From: Saprospira grandis str. Lewin
Lineage (GTDB): Bacteria > Bacteroidota > Bacteroidia > Chitinophagales > Saprospiraceae
Assembly (NCBI RefSeq): GCF_000250635.1
Contig: NC_016940.1
Coordinates: forward strand, 1,352,995-1,416,994
Direction: 5' to 3'
DNA length: 64,000 bases
The notes under the pieces are model-generated. The model saw nothing but the letters and a program-made list of their open reading frames with translations, was not told the origin of the DNA and did not search any database. A program made the position numbers and the translations under genes. This document shows, in pieces, positions 3,737-37,974 of the stretch; the stretch's first letter is position 1, and each line of letters opens with the position of its first letter.

Positions 3737-4087
3737 TTTTTGGGGCCTCCCGCCTTTGGCGGGCGCTACGTTTCGGGGCTCGCAGGTCTGCTCGGCCCTG
3801 CGGCCTGACGGCCTTGGTCTGCGGCTAAGCCGCCCCCCTACACATCGCTAGGCCATTTGGCCTGCGGCTAGGGCTACACATCGGTTACTCCCTTTGGTCA
3901 TCGAACTGGCGCCCCTATAGGGGCTGGTTGTTGGGGCTCGCTGTTACTTGCTTCGCTGCGTCGGCTCCCCTTGGTCGGGTCGCTCGGCCCTGCGGCCTGA
4001 CGGCCTTGGTCTGCGGCTAAGCCGCCCCCCTGCACATCGGTTATTCCCTTTGGTCATCGAAGACGGCCTAAAGGCCTTGTTGTGGCC
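3737..4087 (+). repeat. composite GC-rich interspersed element, subfamily A2 (TTTTGGGGCCTCC…CGCTACGTTTCG…CTCGGCCCTGCGGCCTGACGGCCTTGGTCTGCGGCT…CATCGCTAGGCC), with an internal partial duplication
   Basis: A full A2 unit is followed by the GGTTACTCCCTTTGGTCATCGAACTG sub-unit and a second partial A2 unit. Same family as 42783, 50327 and 55598, and as reverse copies at 7279, 26218, 30637, 40456 and 51411. Confidence 0.8.
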
Positions 4088-5260: not shown

Positions 5261-5334
5261 GCTTCCATAGCTCAGTTGGTTAGAGCATCTGACTGTTAAT
5301 CAGAGGGTCCCTGGTTCGAGCCCAGGTGGGAGCG
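5261..5334 (+). tRNA. tRNA-Asn (anticodon GTT)
   Basis: Cloverleaf folds by hand. The 7-bp acceptor stem is GCTTCCA/TGGGAGC. D-arm is AGCTCAGTTGGTTAGAGC, anticodon loop is CTGTTAA, T-arm is GGTTCGAGCCC. CCA is not encoded. Confidence 0.85.
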
Positions 5335-5359
5335 CTACTCATACACAACAATATATTTT

Positions 5360-5433
5360 GCTTCCATAGCTCAGTTGGTTAGAGCATCTGACTGTTAATC
5401 AGAGGGTCCCTGGTTCGAGCCCAGGTGGGAGCG
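5360..5433 (+). tRNA. tRNA-Asn (anticodon GTT), second identical tandem copy
   Basis: Identical 74-nt sequence 25 nt downstream of the first copy. Confidence 0.85.
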
Positions 5434-5438
5434 CAAAA

Positions 5439-5470
5439 GCCCGACTTCATTTGAAGTTGGGCTTTTTTTT
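5439..5470 (+). terminator. rho-independent terminator of the tRNA-Asn operon
   Basis: GCCCGACTTC-ATTT-GAAGTTGGGC hairpin (10 bp, one G.U pair) followed by T8. Confidence 0.8.
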
Positions 5471-5507
5471 ATTAGCTTTACATATCAAACACATAAAAAA
5501 ACGAATT

Positions 5508-6266
5508 GTGTACTTTTGTTATGTAGATGAAAGTGGTAATCCTGGTCTTTATCAGGGCCAAAACTCTAAGCACTTCATATTAAGTGGCTTTATTATCCAT
5601 ATAAGTGATTGGCAAAATGGATTAGAGGAAATTAAAGTCCTAAGAAAAAAGGTCAATACTAAATACAATATTAGGTACAGAACTGAAATTCATGCTAGTG
5701 AACTAATTCGTATCTCGAAGCAGAAGGAATATCGAAAAATTCATAAGAGTCAAAGAATTGCTTTGCTCAAAGATATTAGCATAAGTATCCCTCAAATGTT
5801 TCCTAAAGCAAAAGTAATTAACATTAGCCTAGACAAGCTAGCCTTAGGCAACAAGGCTAATTTTCAAGAGGTAGCTTGGAGTCGCCTAATTCAAAGATTT
5901 AATAATTTTTTAGAGCGACAGTCCCCCTCTTCCTACGGTTTAATCATTGCAGATAATACAGACGAAAATACTATTCGATCTCTGCTTAGAAAAATGCGCT
6001 CCTACAACCCTATTCCTAAGGGTGCTGGCCAAACAGGATACTATCAAAAGCCCACTACAAAAATTTTAGAAGATCCTGTCCTTAGAGATTCTAAGCATTC
6101 TTACTTTATTCAAATTGCAGATTGTATTGCTCACCTTCTTTATCGAAAAGAATACCCCAAAGGAAGCCTTCGAAAATGGAATATTCATCGCCTATTTAAT
6201 TATCTGGACCCTATTCTCTTAAAAGCAGCTTCTCGTTCAGATGCAGAAGGAATTGTCCGTAAATAA
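5508..6266 (+). CDS. DUF3800-like protein (N-terminal YVDESG motif), AT-rich gene
   Basis: Probable GTG start at 5508 giving MYFCYVDESGNPG. The listed TTG start at 5451 lies inside the tRNA terminator hairpin. The gene is visibly AT-richer than its neighbours. Confidence 0.5.
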   Translation: MYFCYVDESGNPGLYQGQNSKHFILSGFIIHISDWQNGLEEIKVLRKKVNTKYNIRYRTEIHASELIRISKQKEYRKIHKSQRIALLKDISISIPQMFPKAKVINISLDKLALGNKANFQEVAWSRLIQRFNNFLERQSPSSYGLIIADNTDENTIRSLLRKMRSYNPIPKGAGQTGYYQKPTTKILEDPVLRDSKHSYFIQIADCIAHLLYRKEYPKGSLRKWNIHRLFNYLDPILLKAASRSDAEGIVRK

Positions 6267-8593: not shown

Positions 8594-8690
8594 AGCTTTT
8601 TGTTTCCAGATTCTCTCTTTTAACAGCCCTTTGGGCCTATGGTTGCTGCAAAGATACAACTTTTTTCATCTGTTATTGAAAGTAGGCATA

Positions 8691-8848
8691 TTTTGGGGCT
8701 TCCCCTGCGGCCTTCGGCCTTGGGTCGGGCTCTGTCGCAGCTCGCAGGCTTGCTCGGCCCTGCAGCGCTTCGCGCTTTGGTCTGGCCCTTCGGGCCACTG
8801 CTATCCATCCCTAAGCCAAGTCGCTTCGCTCCTTTCTACTGCTTGGAG
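8691..8848 (+). repeat. GC-rich interspersed element, subfamily A1 (TTTTGGGGCTTCCCC… orientation)
   Basis: Reverse complement of the 1238 type. The CCCCAAAA end faces the start of the radical-SAM gene. Confidence 0.85.
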
Positions 8849-8863: not shown

Positions 8864-8901
8864 AAAAAAATGAGCAGCTACTTTCCCCAAAGTAGCTGCT
8901 C
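8864..8901 (-). terminator. rho-independent terminator for the 1056-aa gene
   Basis: GAGCAGCTACTTT-CCCC-AAAGTAGCTGCTC, a 13-bp stem. The A7 run at 8864-8870 gives a T-run on the minus strand. Confidence 0.75.
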
Positions 8902-9041: not shown

Positions 9042-12000
9042 TTAATTTTTCTCCAGTTTTTGGAGATAAGCGACCACCTCCATGGCCATATTGTCTAGTT
9101 CGGGCTGTTGGGCCTCTACGGCATTGCGCTCTTCTAGCCAAGCAAAGTATTTCTCCTCAAAAGCCTTCATCTCGTTAATGTCCAAATAATAGAAGTTGAT
9201 ATTGATATGCGCCGGAGCATTGATGCTAAAGACCGCATGCATAAGATCCTGGAAATCTTCATTTTGGAAACGAGAGGGCCAAGAGGGCAAAATGATACTC
9301 ATATCCAGAGAGTAGAAGTCATGGCGAACGTCTAGATTGGGGCGTTCCTCCAAAAAGAACTGAATATTGCTTTGCAAAGGAATAGCTCCTGATTTAAAGC
9401 TATACACATAGGCCACAATATCATCGATTTGTTCTTCGGCTCCTTCTCGGGTATAAAAGATTTCTGGACAGCGGGCAATCTTACGATCATACTCCTGCAA
9501 CACCACCTGATAGCTTTCGCCATCCTCTAGGGTTTCAATAATGAAGTTGTCCTTTTTGCTGGCCAACAAATCTAGTTGGTTACTGAGGTTGCGTTGCTCT
9601 TCAAAAGCGCCAAACTCATAGCTTTCTAGCAAGGGACGATCTTGGTCATTCACTAGACGGAAAGCGTGGCGGTCTTGGGCCTGCGGACGAAGCAAAATAT
9701 GCTCTACCACATGCATTCCCTCCGTTTGGTGGTTAATGCGGGCAAAAAACTTAATCAGCTTTTCCAACTCTACCTGAGCCGCCAAAATACTGCTATATTC
9801 TCTAATTTTCACGCAGCCCAAATCGGGATTCCCCTTATAGTAAACACTATACATTTCCTCCCCATCGCGCTCTTCCAAAAGGGCCAAATAGTTATAGCTA
9901 AATATACCATTGGCCAAAAGGTCTTGCATGAGCTCGTCCAAATCCTGCCCTCTAAAGATAAACTTAGAGCGGTAGTCTAGGGTTTCTGGCAAACGCTCAG
10001 GAGCGGGACCAGGATCTTCTCCCTTCTCAATTTTCTCCAAACGCTCTAGCTCTACATCTAAATCTATGTAGCCCTCAGGCAACATAGGCGACTCTAGCTG
10101 AATGAGGTCGTGAAAATTATCCACTCCTTCTATATGCGCATCTTCATTAAAGATGCGGACCAAAGATTCATTGCCTCCCTGATTGAGGTTAAGCAACAAA
10201 CAAACCCGACGTTCTAGACCTGCAACCTCCGTTTCTAAAAGCTCCAACATCTTTTTGGTAAACTTGAGGTTGGTTTCTGCTATCGCTTCAGTCAAGGTTT
10301 CAGGCAAATCGAGATCTTTGAGCATTTTTTTCGTCTGCTCCTTGGCCACATCCTCTGGTTTGCGATAGTTAATCGCCATAGAAAAAGCATCTCTCTGATG
10401 CTGACGAAGGCTGTAGTTTTCCCGCAATTGCTTGTACTGCTGGCGAATCAAATCTCTTTCTGCCTCTTCTTTATATTGCTTAATGAGCGGCTCAAATAGC
10501 TCAGCCCATTCTAGCTCTTGCTCATAAATGACATTATAAAGGGCCATGTAGTTGAATCCACGGCTACGGTTTCGACTAATGTCTACATAGTTGCGCAAAA
10601 ACTCCAATTTGGCATTGACTAGCTCATGCTCTGGACTCTTGGCCTCCCCTTCCGACATATCATAGCCCACATACTGGCTTACTTTCAATAAAAAGTCGGT
10701 GGTAAAACGCTCGCCAAAACGAGCCAGCAAATGGTCCAGTAAACGGTTGCGACGCTCCACAAAAGGATCAAATTCCTCTACCGTTTCTTCTAGCTTCTTT
10801 AACCTCGCCTCATTGTCTTTCCCCTTCAAGATGTATTGCATCTCAGGCATGTTCTCTGGCAACTGAGAGAAATAACTGCGGTCCAAATCGCTATCCAATG
10901 AAAAGAATTTCTTCACATTACCCAATTGGGCCAAGTAGTTGGCCATCAGCTGCTCAAAAAAGGATAGATACCCTCTGAGCTGCTTAATCATGCCCAAACG
11001 CTCCCGAGTAGGACGCACACTATTGGGCAAACCAAATGGACTCAAACCATAGGTGGCCGGAAAAGTATTTTGTACCGAGTAGTAACGCTTAATATCATCT
11101 TCCTTCAATACCGAAGGATAATCCTTCTCATTATAGAGCATCTTCATCTGATAGCCCTTCTTGTACCGAGCATAAAGCGAGTACAACAACTGACTGGCCG
11201 TGTTGAGGTCCAAATCATAGTTCAAACTCCCCCGCTGAAAACGAATCGGATAAGCATCGGTTTTCCAACGCGCATCAATAGTGTCCATATCCAAAACAGG
11301 ATAGGTCTTTTCCGCAATCCGAATCACATCTCCCTCTACGGGAAAACCATCTTTTTCTACCCGAAAATAATTGATGCGGCGAACGCCCTCAATATCCGAG
11401 ATGATTTCAATAATCTTAGAAATATAAACCTCCCGCTTCATCGCTCTGAGGTCCTCTTTCTTAATGATGCCATGCACCGGCACTGGCCCATCAAAAATCT
11501 CCTCAATGGCATAGCCCTCTTCCAAAAGTTCATCTATGGTGTGGTACTGAATAGATGGCGTGAGATGCTCCTCCAACTTGAAGAGAATTTCAGCCAATAC
11601 TTCCTCGGCCACCACATCAGAACTAATGTCCAAATCGGTATAAATAATAATCTTATCTACATCCAATACCTCAATGGCCTCCAAATCCTCGCAAAGGTTG
11701 CGATGCGCAGCAAATAAAGCATAGACCTCTCGCTTAATCTCTTGCAAACGCTGCGGCTGACGAGCACTATCACTCACCTGCAACAAAATTCGATACAAGC
11801 CCTTAATGCCTTGCAAATGATCCCGCACAGGCTCCACCCAGGCATTCTTCACCCCATTCACCCGATCAATAATCAAGCGGCGATAATCCTCTATGGTTAC
11901 CGGATTCGTCGGTAAAATCTCCGAAGCATCATAAAAGGTGTTGTTCAAAGCCTGCCGACGGCCCTTCCCTCTAGCATTCAATAAATCCTGAATGCTAAAA

Positions 12001-12212
12001 TCCGTGCGAAAGCCCAAATCGGCCAAAGCATAACAAAGTTGCTCCAAAATCGTCACCCCAGGATCATGGGTGTTGTAATCGGTCCAAACTTTACCCGATA
12101 GTTCTTGCACCATCTGCAAGCCCTCTTCCTTCAAAAAGAAGAAGTCCATACTCTTGTGCGGCGGGGTTTCGCGGAAAATCTGAATTGGTTTCTGCGCCAT
12201 AGGTCTTATCAA
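9042..12212 (-). CDS. large hypothetical cytoplasmic protein (1056 aa, acidic, no signal peptide), family not recognised
   Basis: Long uninterrupted ORF with a conserved-looking N-terminal WTDYNTHDPGVTILEQLCYALADLGFR motif. Followed by a clean terminator. Confidence 0.7.
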   Translation of the reverse strand: MIRPMAQKPIQIFRETPPHKSMDFFFLKEEGLQMVQELSGKVWTDYNTHDPGVTILEQLCYALADLGFRTDFSIQDLLNARGKGRRQALNNTFYDASEILPTNPVTIEDYRRLIIDRVNGVKNAWVEPVRDHLQGIKGLYRILLQVSDSARQPQRLQEIKREVYALFAAHRNLCEDLEAIEVLDVDKIIIYTDLDISSDVVAEEVLAEILFKLEEHLTPSIQYHTIDELLEEGYAIEEIFDGPVPVHGIIKKEDLRAMKREVYISKIIEIISDIEGVRRINYFRVEKDGFPVEGDVIRIAEKTYPVLDMDTIDARWKTDAYPIRFQRGSLNYDLDLNTASQLLYSLYARYKKGYQMKMLYNEKDYPSVLKEDDIKRYYSVQNTFPATYGLSPFGLPNSVRPTRERLGMIKQLRGYLSFFEQLMANYLAQLGNVKKFFSLDSDLDRSYFSQLPENMPEMQYILKGKDNEARLKKLEETVEEFDPFVERRNRLLDHLLARFGERFTTDFLLKVSQYVGYDMSEGEAKSPEHELVNAKLEFLRNYVDISRNRSRGFNYMALYNVIYEQELEWAELFEPLIKQYKEEAERDLIRQQYKQLRENYSLRQHQRDAFSMAINYRKPEDVAKEQTKKMLKDLDLPETLTEAIAETNLKFTKKMLELLETEVAGLERRVCLLLNLNQGGNESLVRIFNEDAHIEGVDNFHDLIQLESPMLPEGYIDLDVELERLEKIEKGEDPGPAPERLPETLDYRSKFIFRGQDLDELMQDLLANGIFSYNYLALLEERDGEEMYSVYYKGNPDLGCVKIREYSSILAAQVELEKLIKFFARINHQTEGMHVVEHILLRPQAQDRHAFRLVNDQDRPLLESYEFGAFEEQRNLSNQLDLLASKKDNFIIETLEDGESYQVVLQEYDRKIARCPEIFYTREGAEEQIDDIVAYVYSFKSGAIPLQSNIQFFLEERPNLDVRHDFYSLDMSIILPSWPSRFQNEDFQDLMHAVFSINAPAHININFYYLDINEMKAFEEKYFAWLEERNAVEAQQPELDNMAMEVVAYLQKLEKN

Positions 12213-12282
12213 TCTAAATAGGGCTCTGCCCTTGGGGTTCTGTTCCGTTCTAAAATATCTTGCGGTAGTGTGTGCTTGTCTC

Positions 12283-12465
12283 CTATTTGTCTAGTTGCTG
12301 CGGGGGGCTCTCTGCATGCATTTGGGCATTGGCCTGCTCATGAATCTTTCCAATCAACTCATATACTTCATTAAATGGCCGCTGGCCCAAGGCCTGCAAA
12401 ATCTTATTGATTTCTTGCATGTCTAGCTGCAATAGCAGGGGTTTCTCTTCTTTTGTCTTGCCCAT
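12283..12465 (-). CDS. small hypothetical protein (60 aa) immediately upstream of the 1056-aa gene
   Basis: ATG at 12463-12465 gives MGKTKEEKPLLLQLDMQEINKILQALGQRPF. The longer listed start would run into a repeat copy. Weak call. Confidence 0.3.
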   Translation of the reverse strand: MGKTKEEKPLLLQLDMQEINKILQALGQRPFNEVYELIGKIHEQANAQMHAESPPQQLDK

Positions 12466-12570
12466 CAGTCTCTTTTTTTGTAAAAGCCTAGCGAATTTAA
12501 GAAAAAAAGCGCTTTGTGCCAATTTATACAAATTTGATTACAGATGTAGGGATTCTTTTCACCTTTTTAT

Positions 12571-12730
12571 TTTTTTGGGGCTGCCCCGCCTTGCAGGCGG
12601 GTCGGGCTGTCTCAGGGCTCGCAGGCCTGCTCGGCCCTTCGCTTTTTTCGCTACGCTCAAAAAGCTCGGTCTGGCCCTGCGGGCCACCCTTGCCCATCCC
12701 TCAGCCATTAAAGGCTGGCTGCGCCAGCCC
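12571..12730 (+). repeat. GC-rich interspersed element, degenerate A1 copy
   Basis: TTTTTTGGGGCTGCCCCGCC…GGGCTCGCAGGCCTGCTCGGCCC…CCATCCCTCAGCC. Confidence 0.75.
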
Positions 12731-12796
12731 CCGCCCAAACAAAAAAAAGCCGCAGTTGAATACTCAACTGCGGCTTTTCGCGCTTATCTACTCCGC

Positions 12797-14164
12797 TTAT
12801 TCTGCATTGTTGATCTCCATGGCCCATTTGTCCCGATCATCAGGAGAAAAGGCCCAAGGCGCTCCATTGTTTTCAATGGTGTTAAACATACCGTTCCACT
12901 CTTCCGGAGAATCAGATTGCTCCAAAATGAGGTTGCGACGCAACTCTACAATAATATCTAAGGGGTTAATCAAAACCGGACAAGCTTCTACACAAGCATT
13001 ACATGAGGTACATGCCCGCAGCTCTTCTGTACTGATGTAGTCAAAAAGAGTTTTGCCATCATCGTAGTTCTCTGCCGTCAATTTAGAGGTTTCCGATTTC
13101 TGCTCCTCATTGATGAACTCGGTCTTGTTGAGGTCCAAATTATGCCCTACCTCATCTGCACGGTCCCGAACATCCATCATGATTTTACGTGGCGATAATT
13201 TCTTGCCCGTCAAGTTCGCCGGACACATAGAGGTGCATCGACCACATTCCGTACAAGTATAGGCACTCATGATCTGCTGACGCTTGAGGTCAAAGACATC
13301 ACTTACGCCAAATTTAGGAATCTCCTCCGATACTGGCGCATCAAAGGCAGCATTGGGGTCCATCATAGAAGCTACTTCTTCTTGTACTTCTTTCATGTTG
13401 GCCATCTCCCCCTTTTTGTTCAATCTGGCCCAAAAGGTATTGGGAAAGGCAAAGATGATGTGCAAATGCTTAGAATAAGGTAGGTAACCCAAAAAGACAA
13501 AGACCATCAAGATGTGGCCCCACCAACCAATGCGCTCCAAAATATGTAGGGTCTCATTGCTTACGCCCTCCCAAAGCGGAGAAATCAAACTACTGATCAA
13601 AAAGCCATATTCGTTGTGATGAATGGCCATATCGGTACTGTTCATCAAAAAGATGCAGAAGACCAAGATAATCTCGGCAAAGAGAATGAGGTTTGCATCC
13701 AATTTTGGCCAACCATTCATCTCCGACTTAACAAAACGAGGCAGCTTGAGCAAGTTACGTCTAGACAAAAAGGCAAAGGTAGCCACCAAAGCCATGACCG
13801 ACAAGACCTCAATGAAGCTCACGAGGAAGGTATAAAAGCCGCGAAGAAAGTCGCTGCCTTCCCACCAAGACCAAAATAAACGGTGCTGCCCCGTCAAGCC
13901 ATCAATGACAATCTCAATGAGCTCGATTTGCGTAACTAAGAAGGCTACATATACACAAAGGTGTAAGAAGGCCGCCAAGGGCCGCTTAAACATTTTTTGC
14001 TGGCCCAAGGCTACCATAATGGTATTGCGCCAACGCTCTGGACTAGGCTTGGCTTCCTCATCTACTTTACCCAGCTGTATGTTGCGAATCACAAAGCTGT
14101 ATTTTTTGTAGGAAAAGGCCGCCGTCCCTAGCAATACTAAGGCAAAAAGGATAGGTCCTATCAT
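12797..14164 (-). CDS. membrane-anchored (Fe-S)-binding protein (two CxxCxxCxxxCP 4Fe-4S motifs after an N-terminal multi-TM region)
   Basis: CTECGRCTSMCP and CTSCNACVEACP motifs. Hydrophobic N-terminal half. Resembles GlpC/HdrD/LutA-type membrane Fe-S subunits, but no CCG domain is seen. Confidence 0.6.
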   Translation of the reverse strand: MIGPILFALVLLGTAAFSYKKYSFVIRNIQLGKVDEEAKPSPERWRNTIMVALGQQKMFKRPLAAFLHLCVYVAFLVTQIELIEIVIDGLTGQHRLFWSWWEGSDFLRGFYTFLVSFIEVLSVMALVATFAFLSRRNLLKLPRFVKSEMNGWPKLDANLILFAEIILVFCIFLMNSTDMAIHHNEYGFLISSLISPLWEGVSNETLHILERIGWWGHILMVFVFLGYLPYSKHLHIIFAFPNTFWARLNKKGEMANMKEVQEEVASMMDPNAAFDAPVSEEIPKFGVSDVFDLKRQQIMSAYTCTECGRCTSMCPANLTGKKLSPRKIMMDVRDRADEVGHNLDLNKTEFINEEQKSETSKLTAENYDDGKTLFDYISTEELRACTSCNACVEACPVLINPLDIIVELRRNLILEQSDSPEEWNGMFNTIENNGAPWAFSPDDRDKWAMEINNAE

Positions 14165-30813: not shown

Positions 30814-33800
30814 TTAAGGCTTAACGACTTCAAAGTTCAGTTGGCTTTGCACGGCCTCGATATGAACATTAAGATAATAAGTACCTGCGGGTAGGTTTTG
30901 GATAGCATCTAGGGTAATGAGGTCGCCGGGGCGGACCGTTTGGCTGCTGCTAAAGACTTGGCGGCCGAGTACATCTAGGAGTTTGAAATTCACTTGGCTC
31001 GTTGTTTTGAGCTGGCTAAAGCGGATATTTACAAAATCGCTAGCGGGGTTCGGGAAGACCGTCACATCTAGTTCTGAGCTATTATTGACGGCACGGACCT
31101 CAGCGTACTCAAAGTCTCCGTTAAAGTCGACTTGTCGCAGGCGGTAGTAAGTTGTATTCTCGTAGCTATTATAGTCGGTATAGCTATAGTAGTTGGCGGT
31201 TGAGCTATTGCCTTGACCTTGGACAAAATCGATTTGGCTAAAGTCGGTTTCATAGTCAAACATGCGTTCTACCTCAAAGCCGCGGTTATCTCTTTCTGTT
31301 TCGCTGGCCCAAGAGAGGAGCACTTCAGAAGAAGACTGGCGTTCGGCATCGAAGAAGAGCCATTCGATGGGGAAATCGACATAAGTATTGGCATCGCGCC
31401 AGTCATTATCGTCGAGTCCGTCATTGTTGGGAGTTGGAGCGGTAGTACCGAGGGCGCTACCATTCACATTATCGTCAAAAATATCGGCGAGACCATCATT
31501 ATCGGCATCGATCCAGAAAGGAGAGTTAGGATCGAGGAAAGGAGGTGTTTGGTTATTGGTATAGCCATCTCCGTTGAGGTTATCTAGCCAATCGGGTAGG
31601 CCATCGCCATCGCTATCGGTATTGGGATAGTGAGCGGGGTTACCGCCGTTGGCGACATAGGCTGTGGCCATTTGGATAATTTCGTCGGCGGCATTGCCAT
31701 CGCCAGCGGTGGCGGTACCGAAGCCATTATCAAAGCCTTCGGCCCAGTCGAAGCCGCTATCATTATCAGAGTCGAGATCTAGATAATCTGCGGGAGCGGT
31801 GCCATCATTATTATCCTCATTGGGCGTAGCGCCGATATTTGCGCCTGCTGCTTGGTTGGCAGCATCTAGGCCTTCGTAGATATCGAGTACACCGTTTCCA
31901 TTAGCATCGGCGCCAGAAGGCGTCATGCCGAAGGTGGGGCAAGTTGAGCAAACGGCTTCTAGATAATCTGGGATACCGTCATTATCGGCATCGATATCAT
32001 AGAGGTCGGCAATACCGTCGCCATCTGTATCTAGGAGGTTAATGGTTCCATTTTGGAGGTCAGACCAGCCGTCGTTATTAGCGTCGGTAATGGGACCATC
32101 TTCAATTTGGCCATCGAGGGTACCGTTGGCGGGAGAATCGGTATTAGCGGCTCCGGTTACTGCTCCTGCTGCGGCTTCTACTACATCGGTAACTCCATCA
32201 TTATCGCTATCGAGATCGAGGAAGTTAGGTGTAGCGTCGGCATCTGCATTAGCATTTGGATAGCTATCTGGAGTGCCATCATTGTTATTGTCGGCGCCAG
32301 TCAAAATGAGTACGGCAGCGCTATTATCGGCAGTACCATCATTATTGGGGTCACCGTCTACGGCATCGGCAAAGCCATCGCCATCGGCATCAGTAAAGAC
32401 ATCTACTTGGCCGTCTCCATCGGCATCCGTTCCATAGGCTTCTAGAATATCTTGGACTCCATCGTTATCGCTATCGAGGTCATAGATATTAAGAATACCG
32501 TCGGCATCGAAATCGCCATTGGGGTAGCTATCGGGTTCGCCATCATTATTATTATCGGCTCCAGTAAGGATAAGGACTTGGGCGCTATTCTCGGCGGTAC
32601 CGTCGTTTCCGACATCGCCATCGAGGACATCATGCAGGCCGTCATTATCGGTATCGACAAAGTCGTCGGCAAAACCGTCTCCGTTGGTATCGGTTCCGCC
32701 AGCTTCTACCACATCTGCGATACCGTCATTATCGCTATCGAGATCATAGATATTAAGGACTCCATCGCTATCTGCGTCTCCGTTAGGGTAATTATCGGGG
32801 GCACCGTCATTATTGACATCATTGCCTGTAAGGATAAGAGCTTGAGCGCTGTTTTCTGCGGTGCCATCGTTTCCGACATCTCCATCGATAACATCATGCA
32901 AACCGTCGTTATCGGTATCGACAAAGTTATCGGCTAGGCCATCGCCATCGGCATCTGTTCCGCCGGCTTCTACTAGATCGGGTATACCGTCATTATCGCT
33001 ATCAAGATCGAGGTTATTCGGAATACCGTCACCATCGACATCATTGTTAAGATAACTATCGGCTAGGCCATCATTGTTATTATCGGCACCAGTAAGTTGG
33101 AGTGCATTAGCGGTATTTTCGGCGGTGCCATCGTTTCCGACATCGCCATCTACGGCATCATGAATACCATCGCCATCGGCATCGACAAAGTTATCGATTC
33201 TGCCATCGCCATCGGCATCAGTTCCGCCGGCTTCTACGGCGTCTGGAATACCGTCATTATCGCTATCGAGGTCAAATTGGTTAGGAATGCCATCGCCATC
33301 ATTATCGGCGAGGAATTCATTGCTACCGTCGGCATCGCGGTCGAGCAATACAGAAGTAGAATTAGCGGCAAGGCAGCTAGGTTGGGGGCCACAGGGGCTA
33401 GTGCCTTCTGGGCCATCGGTATCATCATTATCTACTGCATCGGGAAGGCCATCGCCATCCGAGTCCGTTAAATCATCGAGAATACCGTCTCCATTGGTAT
33501 CTACGCCACCAACTTCAACTAGGTCAGGAATACCGTCATTATCGTTATCCAGATCTAGGTGATTGGGTACGCCATCGCCGTCGAGGTCGAGGTTAGAGCA
33601 AGTCCCGTTAGCGTTGAGTCCGCCACAAGTGGGGAAATCAACATCGGCATAATTGGGTGTGCCATCGCCATCTAGGTCGCCATCGGGATCGGGGAGGCCA
33701 TTGGCACAGCTCCAGCCGTTCACGCCATCGAAGAAGGCGGCGCAATAATCGGGATCGGCATAATCGGGAGTACCGTCGCCATCATGGTCACCATTATAGG

Positions 33801-36800
33801 CTTCCACTGCATCGGGGATACCGTCATTATCTTGGTCGAGATCAGCTTTAGGATCTCTCCAATCGAGTTCGGCATTACCGGCATCTGCATCGGGATGGCT
33901 ATTGGGAGTAAGTCCTGTATTTGTAGCATCTGTGCTGCTGGTATTATTATCAAAACCATCAAGGAGGCCATCGCCATCGGCATCAACAGCCCCTCCGACA
34001 CCTGTATTAGCATTGGGGCTATCGCTAGCATCTACAAGGCCATCGCCATTTGTATCATGTCCTTCGATAAGGTCGCCTTCACCGTCATTATCGGTATCGA
34101 GGTCGAGATAATCGGGATTATCGGTAGCATCTGTATTTACGGGAGTAAGGCCAGAATTATCGCCACCGAAGAGGCCATCATTATTATCGTAAGCATCATC
34201 GATACCGTCGCCATCGGCATCGCTACCTGTGGGAGCGATATAGCTGCCTGTAGCTTGGGCTTCTGTATTATCTACGATACCATCATTATCGGCGTCAATA
34301 TCGAGGAAATTGGGATTATTATCGCCATCCTGATTAGCTGTAGTATAGCTATCGGGATAGCCATCATTATTGCCATCGGTAGTTGTAATGGGCGTAGTTC
34401 CAGCATTAGCGGCATCGCTAGTATTTGACCAACCGTTGCCATCGGCATCATTAGTAGTGGCATCATCCATTTGGCCATCGGCATTAGCGTCAGAGGCGGC
34501 TAGGCCAGCTTCAACGATATCGAGGATACCGTCATTATCGCTATCGAGGTCATAGAGGTTGAGTACGCCGTCGCCATCGAAGTCGCCTTCATTGTAGTTA
34601 TCTGGGCGGCCATCGCTTCCAGCATCGGGACCGGTAGCAATCAATGGGTTAGTGCCTGCGTCGCCAGCTACGCTATCATTATTGGCATCTGAGTCATATT
34701 GGTTAGAGAAACCGTCATTATCAGTATCTGTAAAGTTATCTACTTGGCCGTTGCCATCTACATCAGCTCCTCCAGCCTCTACTAAATCAGGAATACCATC
34801 ATTATCTGAGTCTAGATCATAAGCGTTGAGGTAATTATCGCCATCGGCATCGGCTGTAGGATAACTATCGGGATGGCCATCATTATTGCCATCGGGGCCA
34901 GTAACTACCAGGGCGCCGGCTGTATTTTCGGCGGTACCATCGTTTCCGACATCGCCATCTACAGCATCATAAAAGCCATCATTGTCCGTATCGCTAAAGC
35001 CATCAATAACGCCATCGCCGTCGGCATCTACGCCACCAGCTTCTACCACATCAGGGATACCATCATTATCGGCATCTAGGTCTAGATGATTGAGCAGGCC
35101 ATCACCATCGGCGTCGGCATTGGGGTAGCTATCGGGAGCGCCATCATTATCATTATCGGCTCCAGTAAGGACAAGGGCATTATTAAAGTTATCGGCAATA
35201 CCGTCATTATCGGGATCTCCATCAATAGGATCATGGAAACCATCGCCATCGGCATCGGCAAAAGCATCGACTTGGCCATCGCCATCGGTGTCTGTTCCGC
35301 CAGCTTCTACCAAATCGGGAATACCATCATTATCGGCATCTAGGTCATAAACATCTAGGATACCGTCGCCATCAAAGTCTCCTTGAGGAAAATCATCGGG
35401 TTGGCCGTCGTTATTGCCATCGGCACCTGTAGGTTGAAGGGCTTGAGCTAGGTTTTCTGCGGTGCCATCATTACCTACATCACCATCAACAACATCATTG
35501 AATCCGTCTCGGTCTGTATCTACATAATTGTCCGAAATACCATCGCCATCAGTATCTGTTCCCCCTGCTTCGACAACATCGGGAATACCATCATTATCAG
35601 CATCTAAATCCAAATAATTAGGAACACCATCATTGTCGGTATCTAGGTTGGCGATAGGAGTGCCAGCAGGCAGGCCTAAAGTATACTCCAAAGACACAGA
35701 TTGTACACAAGAAGAAATTGTATTTCCTCCACAAGTTGTATTTACGTTATTATTTGCATCCAAAGTCAACTGAATAGTCCCATCATCATTCCAACTATTC
35801 CATAAAGCAACTGGAATAGTAAATGCAAAATTCATATACGGGGTTACACAGTCAGCATAAGCAGGATTATCAGAATTAGAGCGATCTATAGTTAGTAATA
35901 CATTGCCCAATTCATCTAGAAGTGAAATCTCTTCTCCTGCGTTACCATAGTCTCCAGCCAAGGAAAATCGCCAAACAGCATTCGTAGTAATATCAACGGT
36001 TGATACAGTAAAATTCATTACATGATTAGGACCATTTCCCCCCAAACATTCATCAGGAGAAGTCGCAACCTCATTGGTAACAAGTAAATCATCATAAGCA
36101 TCCGCCAGACCATCGGCATCAGCATCTACAAAAGTATCTACTCGGCCATCGCCATCAGTGTCTACTCCTCCAGCTTCCACTATGTCAGGAATACCATCAC
36201 CATCGGCATCAAGATCATAGGCATTGATAATACCATCGCCATCAGCATCATAAAAATCGCTAACGCCATCAAAATCGGCATCTACAAAGTTTACATCATC
36301 GGGGTCGAGATAGTTGGGGATACCATCACCATCAGTATCATCTTCAGGATCTAAACCATTATGTTCTAAAAGGTCTGGAATACCATCATTATCATCATCA
36401 GTATCTACAGCATCGGCGATACCATCACCATCAGCATCACAATCAGGTGTACTTCTAGTAAAGGGAGCAGATGAAACATCGTAAGACCAGAACCAAGTAA
36501 CAATAGTTCGGGCATTACCATAGTCATCGCAAAGGTCTGCAGGAGTTGCTGAGCCAGCTCCTGCTGTAGGGGCAGGAGAGGCAAAGGTAGCTGCTCCATC
36601 CCAAGCATGTGTTGGGCCTAAGAAGCCCTCCAACATATTTGTTGAAGCCACACCAGTGGCTGTACTGTTGTGATTACCTACATCAGAACAGTCTCCGATA
36701 GGGTTTAAGTTAGTATCATCCCAATAAAGTTTTCTATTTCCTAAAGCTGGAAAAAAAGCATTTACAGAAAATCCACTAGAGTTTAGCTCGGCATCATGCA

Positions 36801-37974
36801 TAGGAATAGCTGTTCGCCCTCGAAAAAGAGTAGCCGTAATTTCAAAGCTAGTGGCTCCAGAAACAGGGTTTCCTTGGCCATCTAGACCATCCCAGTTTAG
36901 TACGTGATTACCTGCGGCTAAATCATAAGCCTCAAGAACTCTATCTGCCGTTCCTGACTGATAGCCTGCAACACCATTTAAATCTAAAAGAAGTGCCGCA
37001 TCTCCTGGATCAGGTAAAAACAAAGGGATATAGTATGCACCTGGACAACCATATACATTGGCTGGAATAGCTGGGGCAGCTGAAGGAGGTACTACACGAA
37101 AAATGCTTGTATCAGGCACTGCCAAAAAAACCTCATAGCCATCAGCAAATGCAGGGGAGTTTTGTCCCGAATAAACTGAAGCCCGATCATTGACAAAATC
37201 TCCATTATCAACAACTCCATACTTGTTCATCGCCAATACATATCCCAAAGGGCGAAAGCCAGTTTGAAAATTCATCCGAACAACAGAGCTATCTGAAGTA
37301 TACGCATAATAATCTCCTTCAAAAGAAAAGTTAATAGAAGGCGTAAAGTCTGGACTTGCAGGGTCATATGTAATAAATGACCAGCGCTGACAGTGTAAAC
37401 GTCCCTCTAAGAAAGTATTGGTCCCATTCTCTGCTACTGTAATATCAAAGTAGGGAAAAAAGATTTCGCCGTTGGCAGAGGCATCTGCTGTAGCTCCACC
37501 ATCTGTACTTTGAAATAGCTCAATACGATAATCCCCGTTTTGAGTGGGGGTAAATGTAAGCGGAGTATAGCCAGCAGGATTTGTTCCTCCAATATTTGGC
37601 CCTGCTACTGCTTCATTATAGGTATTGATGAAGCCAGCTCCTGCTGTTTGTAATAAAAAGGCTGGAACGACTACAGTACCTAAGGGGTCGATAACTCGAA
37701 TATAGACATTATTAGGTCTGCTCACTGCAGGAAGCCGCTCGTACATATTAAAGCCCAAATAAATTGTCTCCGTACTAAAGTCAGAAATAGAGACCTTTAA
37801 GCCATTGTTTACCCCAGAGTTGAGGTAAGAGCCATTTCCCAAGGACTGCCGAATCCAGAGGGCCGTTCCATTGGTACTGTTAGGCATTACCTGGGCTGTC
37901 CCTTCTGCTCTTAACTGGGCAGAAAAGAACAAAAGCAATGCACTTAAAATTAAGTGATAGTAAATTCTTTTCAT
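30814..37974 (-). CDS. giant (2386 aa) secreted protein with dozens of thrombospondin type-3 (calcium-binding DxDxDGxxDxxD) repeats and a T9SS C-terminal sorting domain
   Basis: Signal peptide [24 protein letters not shown] ~100-aa module ([25 protein letters not shown]…[12 protein letters not shown]…[10 protein letters not shown]) is repeated more than 10 times. C-terminal [14 protein letters not shown]…LDVLGRQV is CTD-like. Confidence 0.85.

Follow-up and report, generated by a model that had tools for sequence, protein, structure and literature searches.

A probable cis12 gene of the Saprospira grandis contractile injection system, encoded apart from the main cluster

We analyzed a 64,000-nucleotide (nt) stretch of the Saprospira grandis str. 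Lewin genome (NC_016940.1, positions 1,352,995 to 1,416,994), hereafter the window, and asked what is encoded by a long open reading frame (ORF) on its minus strand. In the ORF list, the longest form of this ORF runs over 9042..12212 and encodes 1056 amino acids (aa) from a TTG at 12212. The initial annotation had regarded the product as an unannotatable acidic protein without a transmembrane segment, and had suggested that it might have a structural role in an apparatus of the baseplate or contractile-injection type. The general description was borne out: the isoelectric point is 4.86 (186 aspartate and glutamate versus 127 lysine and arginine residues), and no transmembrane-like segment was found, the top 19-residue Kyte–Doolittle window scoring 0.99. 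The suggested function was also correct. The large protein is a member of the Cis12/Afp12 family by sequence, predicted fold and the gene neighborhood of its homologues. It is, with high probability, the cognate cis12 product, i.e., a baseplate wedge of the Cis12/Afp12 type, of a contractile injection system (CIS) of S. grandis that resembles type VI secretion system (T6SS) subtype iv (T6SS-iv).

Identity and domain layout of the large protein

The coding sequence probably starts at the ATG at 12200 (9042..12200, minus strand; 1052 aa), because the S. grandis orthologues in RefSeq are 1052 aa long and the alignments of homologues begin at residues 1–3. It corresponds to the orthologues SapgrDRAFT_0933, SGRA_1346 and PPO43_04855. 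This ORF and a 60-aa ORF upstream of it, described below, gave only sub-threshold matches in Pfam, NCBIfam, PHROGs and PADLOC; the matches included TIGR02243 'putative baseplate assembly protein' (E = 0.0097; 14.5 bits versus a cutoff of 155.8) and phrog_6 'baseplate wedge subunit' (E = 0.025). That is, the earlier statement that no motif could be assigned held for these four collections. It failed for the PDB sequences, where a plain phmmer search named the protein as Cis12 and thereby overturned the label 'unannotatable'. The matches were Algo12 (7AEB_A, E = 1.8e-86), Alg12 (9WSZ_A, 8.3e-86), All3315, the Cis12 of the Anabaena thylakoid CIS (tCIS) (7B5H_AD, 2.3e-74), SalCis12 (9RCE_B, 8.5e-41), Pvc12 (6J0N_P, 2.3e-20), 9QGL_a (1.1e-19) and Afp12 (6RAO_J, 1.3e-16). 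A family-profile search raised the PDB scores to 6e-167 and 9e-157, the former for the tCIS Cis12.

The predicted fold led to the same family. The AlphaFold2 (AF2) model, which was built with 63 homologues, had a mean predicted local distance difference test score (pLDDT) of 85.3 and a predicted template modeling score of 0.76. A Foldseek search of the full-length model against the PDB, as the initial annotation had recommended, placed Cis12 chains on top; no housekeeping family was hit. The five best matches were all of the Cis12 type (7B5H_AD with E = 3e-44, 7AEB_A, 9QGL_a, 6J0N_P and 6RAO_J); the alignment with 7B5H_AD spanned the full length, and the target-normalized template modeling score against 7AEB_A, the modelled part of Algo12, was 0.78. 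Phage gp6-like wedge proteins ranked far below the Cis12 chains. The Cis12 family comprised more than 2,200 matches, all labelled 'hypothetical' and without Pfam domains, and our literature search found no paper naming Saprospira together with Afp12. Naming these relatives as Cis12 fills a gap in the annotation of a widespread machine, since Cis12 is a core subunit of its baseplate.

The gene neighborhood of the homologues was assessed by tblastn with reference CIS proteins at 80 loci in species-representative genomes (Bacteroidota, cyanobacteria, Nitrospirota, Myxococcota and Proteobacteria). About 70 of the 80 homologues lay within full CIS operons, directly past Cis11 and a Cis13-like gene. 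The usual order was sheath, gp19 tubes, DUF5908, CIS_tube, VgrG, PAAR, gp25, Cis11, a protein of about 250 aa, Cis12, CIS_TMP and an AAA ATPase; Pvc16_N markers were also present in these operons. The protein of about 250 aa weakly matched the N-terminus of All3316, which is Cis13 (E = 0.009), and occupied the same position as Cis13 in Anabaena.

These neighborhoods also bear on whether the protein could come from the baseplate of a prophage or of a phage remnant. The sub-threshold phrog_6 and TIGR02243 matches and the distant structural likeness to gp6 are what such an origin might leave. However, the strong matches are all CIS Cis12 proteins, with E-values 10 to 40 orders better than that of any phage protein; the operons in which the homologues reside are of the CIS type, as marked by CIS_tube, CIS_TMP, DUF5908 and Pvc16_N; the gene itself lies among radical-SAM MqnC-like, Fe-S oxidoreductase, tRNA and uvrC genes with no phage genes; and a scan of IMG/VR with the large protein returned no relatives. 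We consider a phage origin hardly credible.

The protein can be divided into three parts. The conserved N-terminal core (residues 1–552; 10545..12200, minus strand) comprises the gp6-like wedge part and the first part of the gp7-like part, and corresponds to modelled Alg12 residues 3–551 in the published domain description (PMC8894135). Using tblastn, residues 4–553 showed 58–60% identity to Aureispira-type proteins and 47–50% to in-operon homologues. A patterned N-terminal segment had initially been noted as a possible conserved signature, and this was confirmed: the WTDYNTHDPGVTILEQLCYAL segment ('WTDYNTHDPG...') is the most conserved stretch of the family, and the signature WTDYNTHDPGVTILE (residues 39–53 of the 1052-aa form; 12042..12086, minus strand) contains nine positions that are invariant in 63 sequences (W39, D41, N43, H45, D46, P47, G48, T50 and E53). 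The locus finder likewise chose D[YF]NxHDPG[VI] as the most conserved peptide. In the AF2 model, the signature forms a loop and the start of a helix between helices 20–35 and 47–65, which may contribute to the core bundle with Cis11, to judge from the Alg12 structure (PMC8894135).

The core is followed by an insertion of about 115 aa (residues 553–669; 10194..10544, minus strand), which is helical in the AF2 model and is found in the Saprospira-type proteins only, being absent from the Aureispira type. The tblastn alignments skipped residues 554–658 in four loci with a detached cis12 (L001 and L005–L007) and ran through them in another (L087). The C-terminal peripheral part (residues 670–1052; 9045..10193, minus strand) is more variable and contains alpha/beta domains; its counterpart in Alg12 is the gp7-like periphery, for which no model was built there. 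It nevertheless carries family-wide invariant motifs (EG.H.VEHILLRP, LP.WP.RFQN, NAPAH and FE..Y..WL), with invariant columns at E827–P839, P972–F978, P996 and F1014–W1021. The family profile (A1) matched the C-terminus of All3315, and the Foldseek matches of this part included local YegP-like ones.

Detached cis12 in Saprospira and Aureispira

The 64-kb window contains no other CIS genes. That is, its cis12 is not beside cis11, unlike the operon-type homologues; this is a feature of context and not a property of the protein. We paired cis11 with cis12 genome by genome, using a search with the Cis11 protein of a related cluster (P0129), look-ups of cluster members and locus tags; an earlier search with the Cis11 of L085, the nearest in-operon relative, had returned no labelled Saprospira or Aureispira protein. 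The two genes are 31 genes apart in S. grandis DSM 2844 (SapgrDRAFT_0902 and SapgrDRAFT_0933), 38 genes apart in S. grandis str. Lewin (SGRA_1308 and SGRA_1346) and 30 genes apart in Saprospira sp. CCB-QB6 (PPO43_04705 and PPO43_04855). They lie on different contigs in two metagenome-assembled genomes (MAGs) of Aureispira sp., ACRBFS (ACRBFS_10385 and ACRBFS_15300) and AB8E82 (AB8E82_15285 and AB8E82_07755). Orphan cis12 genes were found above all in the Saprospira/Aureispira clade, namely in the window, L001, L005–L007 and L087. The complete A. anguillae genome has no CIS genes within 10 kb of its cis12. In addition, Aureispira sp. CCB-QB1, the strain with a characterized T6SS-iv, has an orphan orthologue (WP_052596752.1); over the N-terminal half, the identity of its 90% cluster is 58%. 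The Cis11 proteins of S. grandis (P0126) and of the Aureispira MAGs (P0235 and P0247) appear to belong to one clade, to judge from their 57–67% identity to P0129; the published Cis2 of S. grandis clusters with that of Aureispira (bioRxiv 10.1101/2024.01.29.577165).

The main CIS cluster of S. grandis is represented by the DSM 2844 locus L093. It starts with a Pvc16_N cap, a 375-aa protein, the sheath, three gp19 tubes and DUF5908, continues with VgrG, PAAR, gp25, Cis11, an insertion sequence (IS) transposase and a Cis13-like protein, and then passes into unrelated genes. No cis12 was present within 10 kb, and tblastn found neither a Cis12-like nor a small-ORF-like sequence in this locus. Thus, the genome encodes sheath, tubes, VgrG, gp25 and Cis11 in a cluster without its own cis12. 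The IS transposase gene (14163–14978 of L093; DDE_Tnp_1/DDE_Tnp_4) stands between cis11 and the Cis13-like gene. IS insertions in cis11 and cis14 reversibly switch off the T6SS in Aureispira (bioRxiv 10.1101/2024.01.29.577165).

Related genomes showed intermediate arrangements. In L090, Cis11, the Cis13-like protein, a 57-aa ORF and Cis12 are contiguous, with cis12 last. In L092, about 2 kb of small ORFs are inserted ahead of a 53-aa ORF and Cis12. In L089, a Cis12 with 64% identity to the window protein lies 8 kb beyond the end of the cluster on the opposite strand. In one MAG (L091 and L006), the cluster and cis12 are on separate contigs. The simplest reading is that a terminal module of the small ORF and cis12 was displaced from an ancestral operon; therefore, the window gene is most likely the cognate cis12 of the S. 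grandis system. Between the L089 genome and S. grandis, Cis11 (67% identity) and Cis12 (64%) have diverged in parallel, as expected of co-evolving partners. The initial annotation had also raised the prospect of a hidden uncharacterized system. This was not the case: the gene is most probably part of the T6SS-iv-type CIS already known in Saprospiraceae and simply lies outside the main cluster.

The detachment would also be compatible with a spare or decaying paralogue left over from a lost second CIS cluster, in which case the working system would use another, unseen cis12. The absence of other CIS genes from the window would fit such a history, as would the finding that one MAG has a pair of complete CIS operons with a cis12 in both (L085 and L086), and our cis12 survey of S. 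grandis covered L093 and the window. However, the ORF is full-length and every family-invariant residue is kept. The window protein is 97% identical to SapgrDRAFT_0933 of strain DSM 2844, and an orthologue is present in all four Saprospira genomes of its cluster. Moreover, the main cluster lacks cis12, yet Cis12 is found in every solved CIS baseplate, and both the parallel divergence and the intermediate arrangements tie cis12 to the cluster. We therefore consider a spare paralogue unlikely.

A detached Cis12-like protein might instead have been co-opted outside the wedge, for example as a free cytoplasmic scaffold or as a membrane or trans-envelope anchor of the T6SS-iv, and would then have ceased to be a stoichiometric wedge subunit. 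Its independent transcription unit, the Saprospira-specific helical insertion of about 115 aa and the divergent C-terminal half are compatible with a new role, and in Aureispira the T6SS-iv shows anchoring densities that lack an explanation, together with a trans-envelope complex of a novel kind (bioRxiv 10.1101/2024.01.29.577165). On the other hand, the best conserved part of the protein is precisely the wedge-forming N-terminal core, with its invariant signature and 58–60% identity to Aureispira; no solved CIS has a wedge without Cis12, and the cluster offers no alternative cis12. Such a co-option appears very improbable.

Several points weigh against the assignment of the window gene as the cognate wedge gene. 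L093 has no CIS_tube/Cis7, tape measure or AAA gene within 10 kb of cis11, and the parts list of the system is incomplete. The absence of another cis12 was established for L093 and the 64-kb window; a second copy could, with low probability, lie elsewhere in the genome. The Aureispira paper gives its cluster as 'cis1-cis16', and its text is silent on cis12 and its location (bioRxiv 10.1101/2024.01.29.577165). Finally, the presence of SGRA_1346 in an assembled particle is a prediction from genes and a model. With regard to the missing parts, CIS_tube (PF19266), CIS_TMP and AAA (Cis15) were likewise not found within 10 kb of cis11 in L088, L089, L090 and L092; L091 does carry a CIS_tube gene, unlike the other clusters of the Saprospira/Aureispira type. 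The system of this type thus seems to be spread over several loci.

Two further features of the CIS loci were observed. Some gp19-type tube proteins in L085 (1–1654), L088 (4167–5360) and L089 (4637–6058) are unusually long (309–859 aa) and carry extra SprB-like and Big_7 domains; a protein with a type IX secretion system (T9SS) sorting signal also stands among the tube genes of L088. These features may be linked to the inner tube of Aureispira, which has been reported to be unusually stable. Meanwhile, a gene pair encoding an nSTAND1 NTPase-WD40 protein (about 1100 aa) and an outer membrane protein (OMP) beta-barrel (OMP_b-brl_2) recurs beside CIS genes in S. grandis (L093, 17665–22571) and on a Cytophagaceae contig (L045, 1164–5548), with further sites in L002 (12717–14750) and L003 (20197–21951), and nSTAND1 proteins flank further CIS operons. 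The pair could represent regulatory or envelope-spanning accessories of CIS.

The small upstream ORF and its two-gene unit with cis12

The initial annotation had pointed to a possible 60-aa ORF seventy nt upstream of the large one. This ORF (MGKTKEEK...; 12283–12465, minus strand) was recovered in the ORF list. The gap between its end and the start of the large ORF is 70 nt if counted to the TTG and 82 nt if counted to the ATG. It is a real gene of a conserved, CIS-linked and uncharacterized family. A census by tblastn and a hidden Markov model (HMM) over 90 Cis12 loci found the small ORF in 24 loci. In 23 of them it was directly upstream of cis12 on the same strand, at a distance of 6–300 nt and with 35–60% identity among homologues; in the remaining one it was beside gp25 in a CIS operon. 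No homologue was found elsewhere in the roughly 1.9 Mb of DNA examined. The proposed check of whether the two genes co-occur was thus answered in favor of a link. The homologues share the motif L.L[ST][LV].E.N.I..ALG..PF.EVYELIGK[IL]N.QAN.QL, followed by an acidic or polar tail. The small ORF also stays with cis12 where cis12 is detached, as in the window, in L087 (a different housekeeping context) and in L040 (Cytophagaceae, beside a resistance-nodulation-division efflux operon).

An exhaustive phmmer search with the 60-aa sequence gave 353 cluster representatives, most of 50–70 aa and many with two tandem copies. Tandem duplications of the small domain within single proteins of 90–170 aa were seen in L083 (9374–9985), L039 (9543–9824), P0316, P0320 and P0325, and P0325 has an apparent N-terminal signal or transmembrane-like segment ahead of its two copies. 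Two top matches of the small-protein search, P0317 and P0341, were low-complexity repeats and were discarded. Neither the small protein nor its family alignment and profile (A2) matched any entry in Pfam, NCBIfam, PHROG, PADLOC or the PDB sequences. The AF2 model (pLDDT 85.7) comprises an extended N-terminal segment, a helical hairpin (residues 16–27 and 31–50) and a disordered acidic tail, and Foldseek found nothing like it in the PDB. We infer that the small protein is a Cis12-specific assembly chaperone or adaptor, or a small baseplate component. It is missing from about 74% of the Cis12 loci, including those of cyanobacteria and the Aureispira orphans, which speaks against a general partnership; therefore, it is not an obligatory partner of Cis12 and is, rather, accessory. 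We tentatively propose, with somewhat less than even confidence, that the ORF of about 60 aa is a previously unrecognized, Cis12-dedicated CIS accessory component, which travels with cis12 as a two-gene module and has been uncoupled from the operon in Saprospiraceae and some Cytophagaceae. If true, the uncoupled module might allow separate regulation or exchange of a peripheral, specificity-determining part of the baseplate.

The boundaries of the unit could be placed. The 13-bp-stem terminator noted initially was found at 8872–8901 (minus strand); this intrinsic-terminator-like hairpin has a 4-nt GGGG loop and a T-run, sits 140 nt past the stop codon of cis12 and ends the unit. At the 5' boundary, a second terminator-like hairpin (12744–12779, minus strand; 16-bp stem and T-run) belongs to the upstream Fe-S oxidoreductase gene. 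Because this separate terminator closes the preceding gene, the small ORF and cis12 form their own transcription unit. A weak sigma-70-like promoter match (TTGGCA-17-TAAATT; 12494..12522, minus strand) was seen upstream of the small ORF, at a distance of 29 nt. The match is to the consensus only; Bacteroidota promoters differ from that consensus, and the count of such sites in the region is not above shuffle expectation.

The unit is flanked by two copies of a GC-rich sequence (8690–8830 and 12565–12705), and we considered a mobile cassette bounded by them. This idea was rejected because the repeat is found in most intergenic regions of the window. It is a dispersed intergenic element of about 110–130 nt with the 20-nt core GGCCGAGCAGACCTGCGAGC. 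In the 64 kb, 14 occurrences were counted over both strands (expected, 0.01), at 3778, 7354, 8740, 12617, 14442, 18471, 24956, 29876, 30697, 40542, 51477, 58430, 63006 and 63276. Copies were also detected in L093 by blastn. The element looks like a REP/MITE-like repeat (repetitive extragenic palindrome or miniature inverted-repeat transposable element) and yields spurious GC-rich ORFs; overlapping plus-strand ORFs such as those at 11070–11717 and 12407–13040 (GC-rich) only shadow cis12 or the repeat and are not genes.

The flanking genes are ordinary chromosomal ones: uvrC, a PfkB kinase, two tRNA-Asn genes, an MqnC-like radical-SAM enzyme and the Fe-S oxidoreductase, and an S8 peptidase carrying a T9SS sorting domain is also nearby. 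The tRNA-Asn(GTT) genes are in tandem (5261–5335 and 5360–5434, with 25 nt between them) and are followed by a DUF3800 gene (5451–6266). Farther away, a 2386-aa ORF (30814–37974, minus strand) has a C-terminal T9SS sorting domain as its only Pfam match; its product is an uncharacterized giant protein that is secreted or placed on the cell surface. The grappling hooks of Aureispira are giant T9SS substrates, and this ORF may therefore be of interest.

Proposed assembly and comparison with known systems

By homology with AlgoCIS, tCIS, PVC and AFP, six Cis11–Cis12 heterodimers would form an iris-like wedge ring around the VgrG/PAAR spike. Cis9 (gp25) connects the wedge ring to the sheath (PMC8894135, PMC8894136), and domains I–III of Alg12, its gp6-like part, build the wedge (PMC8894135). 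Residues 1–552 of the S. grandis protein, including the helices of the HDPG signature, would correspondingly form the wedge and the core bundle with the Cis11 protein SGRA_1308, and the divergent C-terminal half would lie at the baseplate periphery. Elsewhere, the peripheral part of Cis12 serves tail-fiber binding, lateral arrays or membrane contact (PMC8894135, PMC8894136); in Anabaena, an extra Cis12 domain is the wide connector to the thylakoid membrane (PMC8894136). Incorporation into the baseplate and the roles of the C-terminal half and of the small protein are, in this scheme, what homology and gene linkage suggest. Because the main S. grandis cluster is without cis12, the now separate two-gene unit would supply Cis12 in trans, and its 60-aa product would act as a Cis12-dedicated accessory factor. 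This peripheral half has been called an evolutionary hotspot for fiber binding, arrays and membrane contact, and is a candidate for the T6SS-iv anchoring densities; it may contribute to the six inner-membrane anchoring densities of the Aureispira baseplate.

The protein family has already been characterized structurally and the system has been described. What is mildly new is that cis12 is encoded off-cluster in ixotrophic Saprospiraceae, that it has a conserved small partner and that the Cis12 family has no curated model. Saprospira and Aureispira are model organisms of ixotrophic predation, and anyone working only from the main cluster to reconstruct or engineer the system would overlook a wedge subunit that is essential. 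The conserved small gene beside cis12 offers a lead toward a new assembly factor.

We compared the protein with known systems. Phage T4 gp6 and gp7 show no detectable sequence similarity to it; the likeness is a distant one of the wedge fold (5IV5_A, E = 0.016; 3H2T, gp6), with the same core-bundle and trifurcation architecture in concept. Afp12 and Pvc12 of the Serratia AFP and Photorhabdus PVC (PDB 6RAO, 6J0N and 9QGL) belong to the same family (Foldseek E = 5e-15 to 7e-24) and have the same wedge role with Afp11 or Pvc11. However, identity in the structural alignments is 14–18%, and these are insecticidal extracellular CIS (eCIS) of Gammaproteobacteria with tail fibers folded back on the sheath.

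All3315, the Cis12 of the Anabaena PCC 7120 tCIS (PDB 7B5H; PMC8894136), aligns over the whole length, including the conserved C-terminal domain, and related operons have a Cis13-like gene just before cis12, as all3316 precedes all3315. It differs in its greater length (1335 aa), in an extension that makes up the 'wide connector' reaching the thylakoid membrane and in its location in an operon; in addition, no small-ORF homologue was found in the cyanobacterial loci examined. Alg12/Algo12 of the Algoriphagus machipongonensis eCIS (PDB 7AEB/7AEF and 9WSZ; PMC8894135) is the best sequence match, with about 30% identity in the structural alignment. It has the same two-part layout, with a gp6-like wedge and a gp7-like periphery, and the Cis11 partner likewise has a long extension (1256 aa). 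The gene for Alg12 lies inside the operon, and its CIS is an extracellular, released one, whereas the gene for the window protein is about 30 genes distant from cis11; the window protein has an insertion of about 115 aa and comes from a lineage classed as having the cell-anchored T6SS-iv.

The comparison also included the T6SS subtype iv found in Aureispira sp. CCB-QB1, which uses it in ixotrophy, and in Ca. Amoebophilus asiaticus. Aureispira and S. grandis share the family Saprospiraceae. The orphan cis12 of Aureispira lacks both the small ORF and the helical insertion. S. grandis has been cited as carrying a related CIS cluster, and its 'rhapidosomes' have been read as T6SS-iv (bioRxiv 10.1101/2024.01.29.577165). 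In the sister genus Aureispira, the T6SS-iv kills prey during ixotrophy, and cryo-electron tomography showed a baseplate anchored to the inner membrane and contact-dependent firing (bioRxiv 10.1101/2024.01.29.577165).

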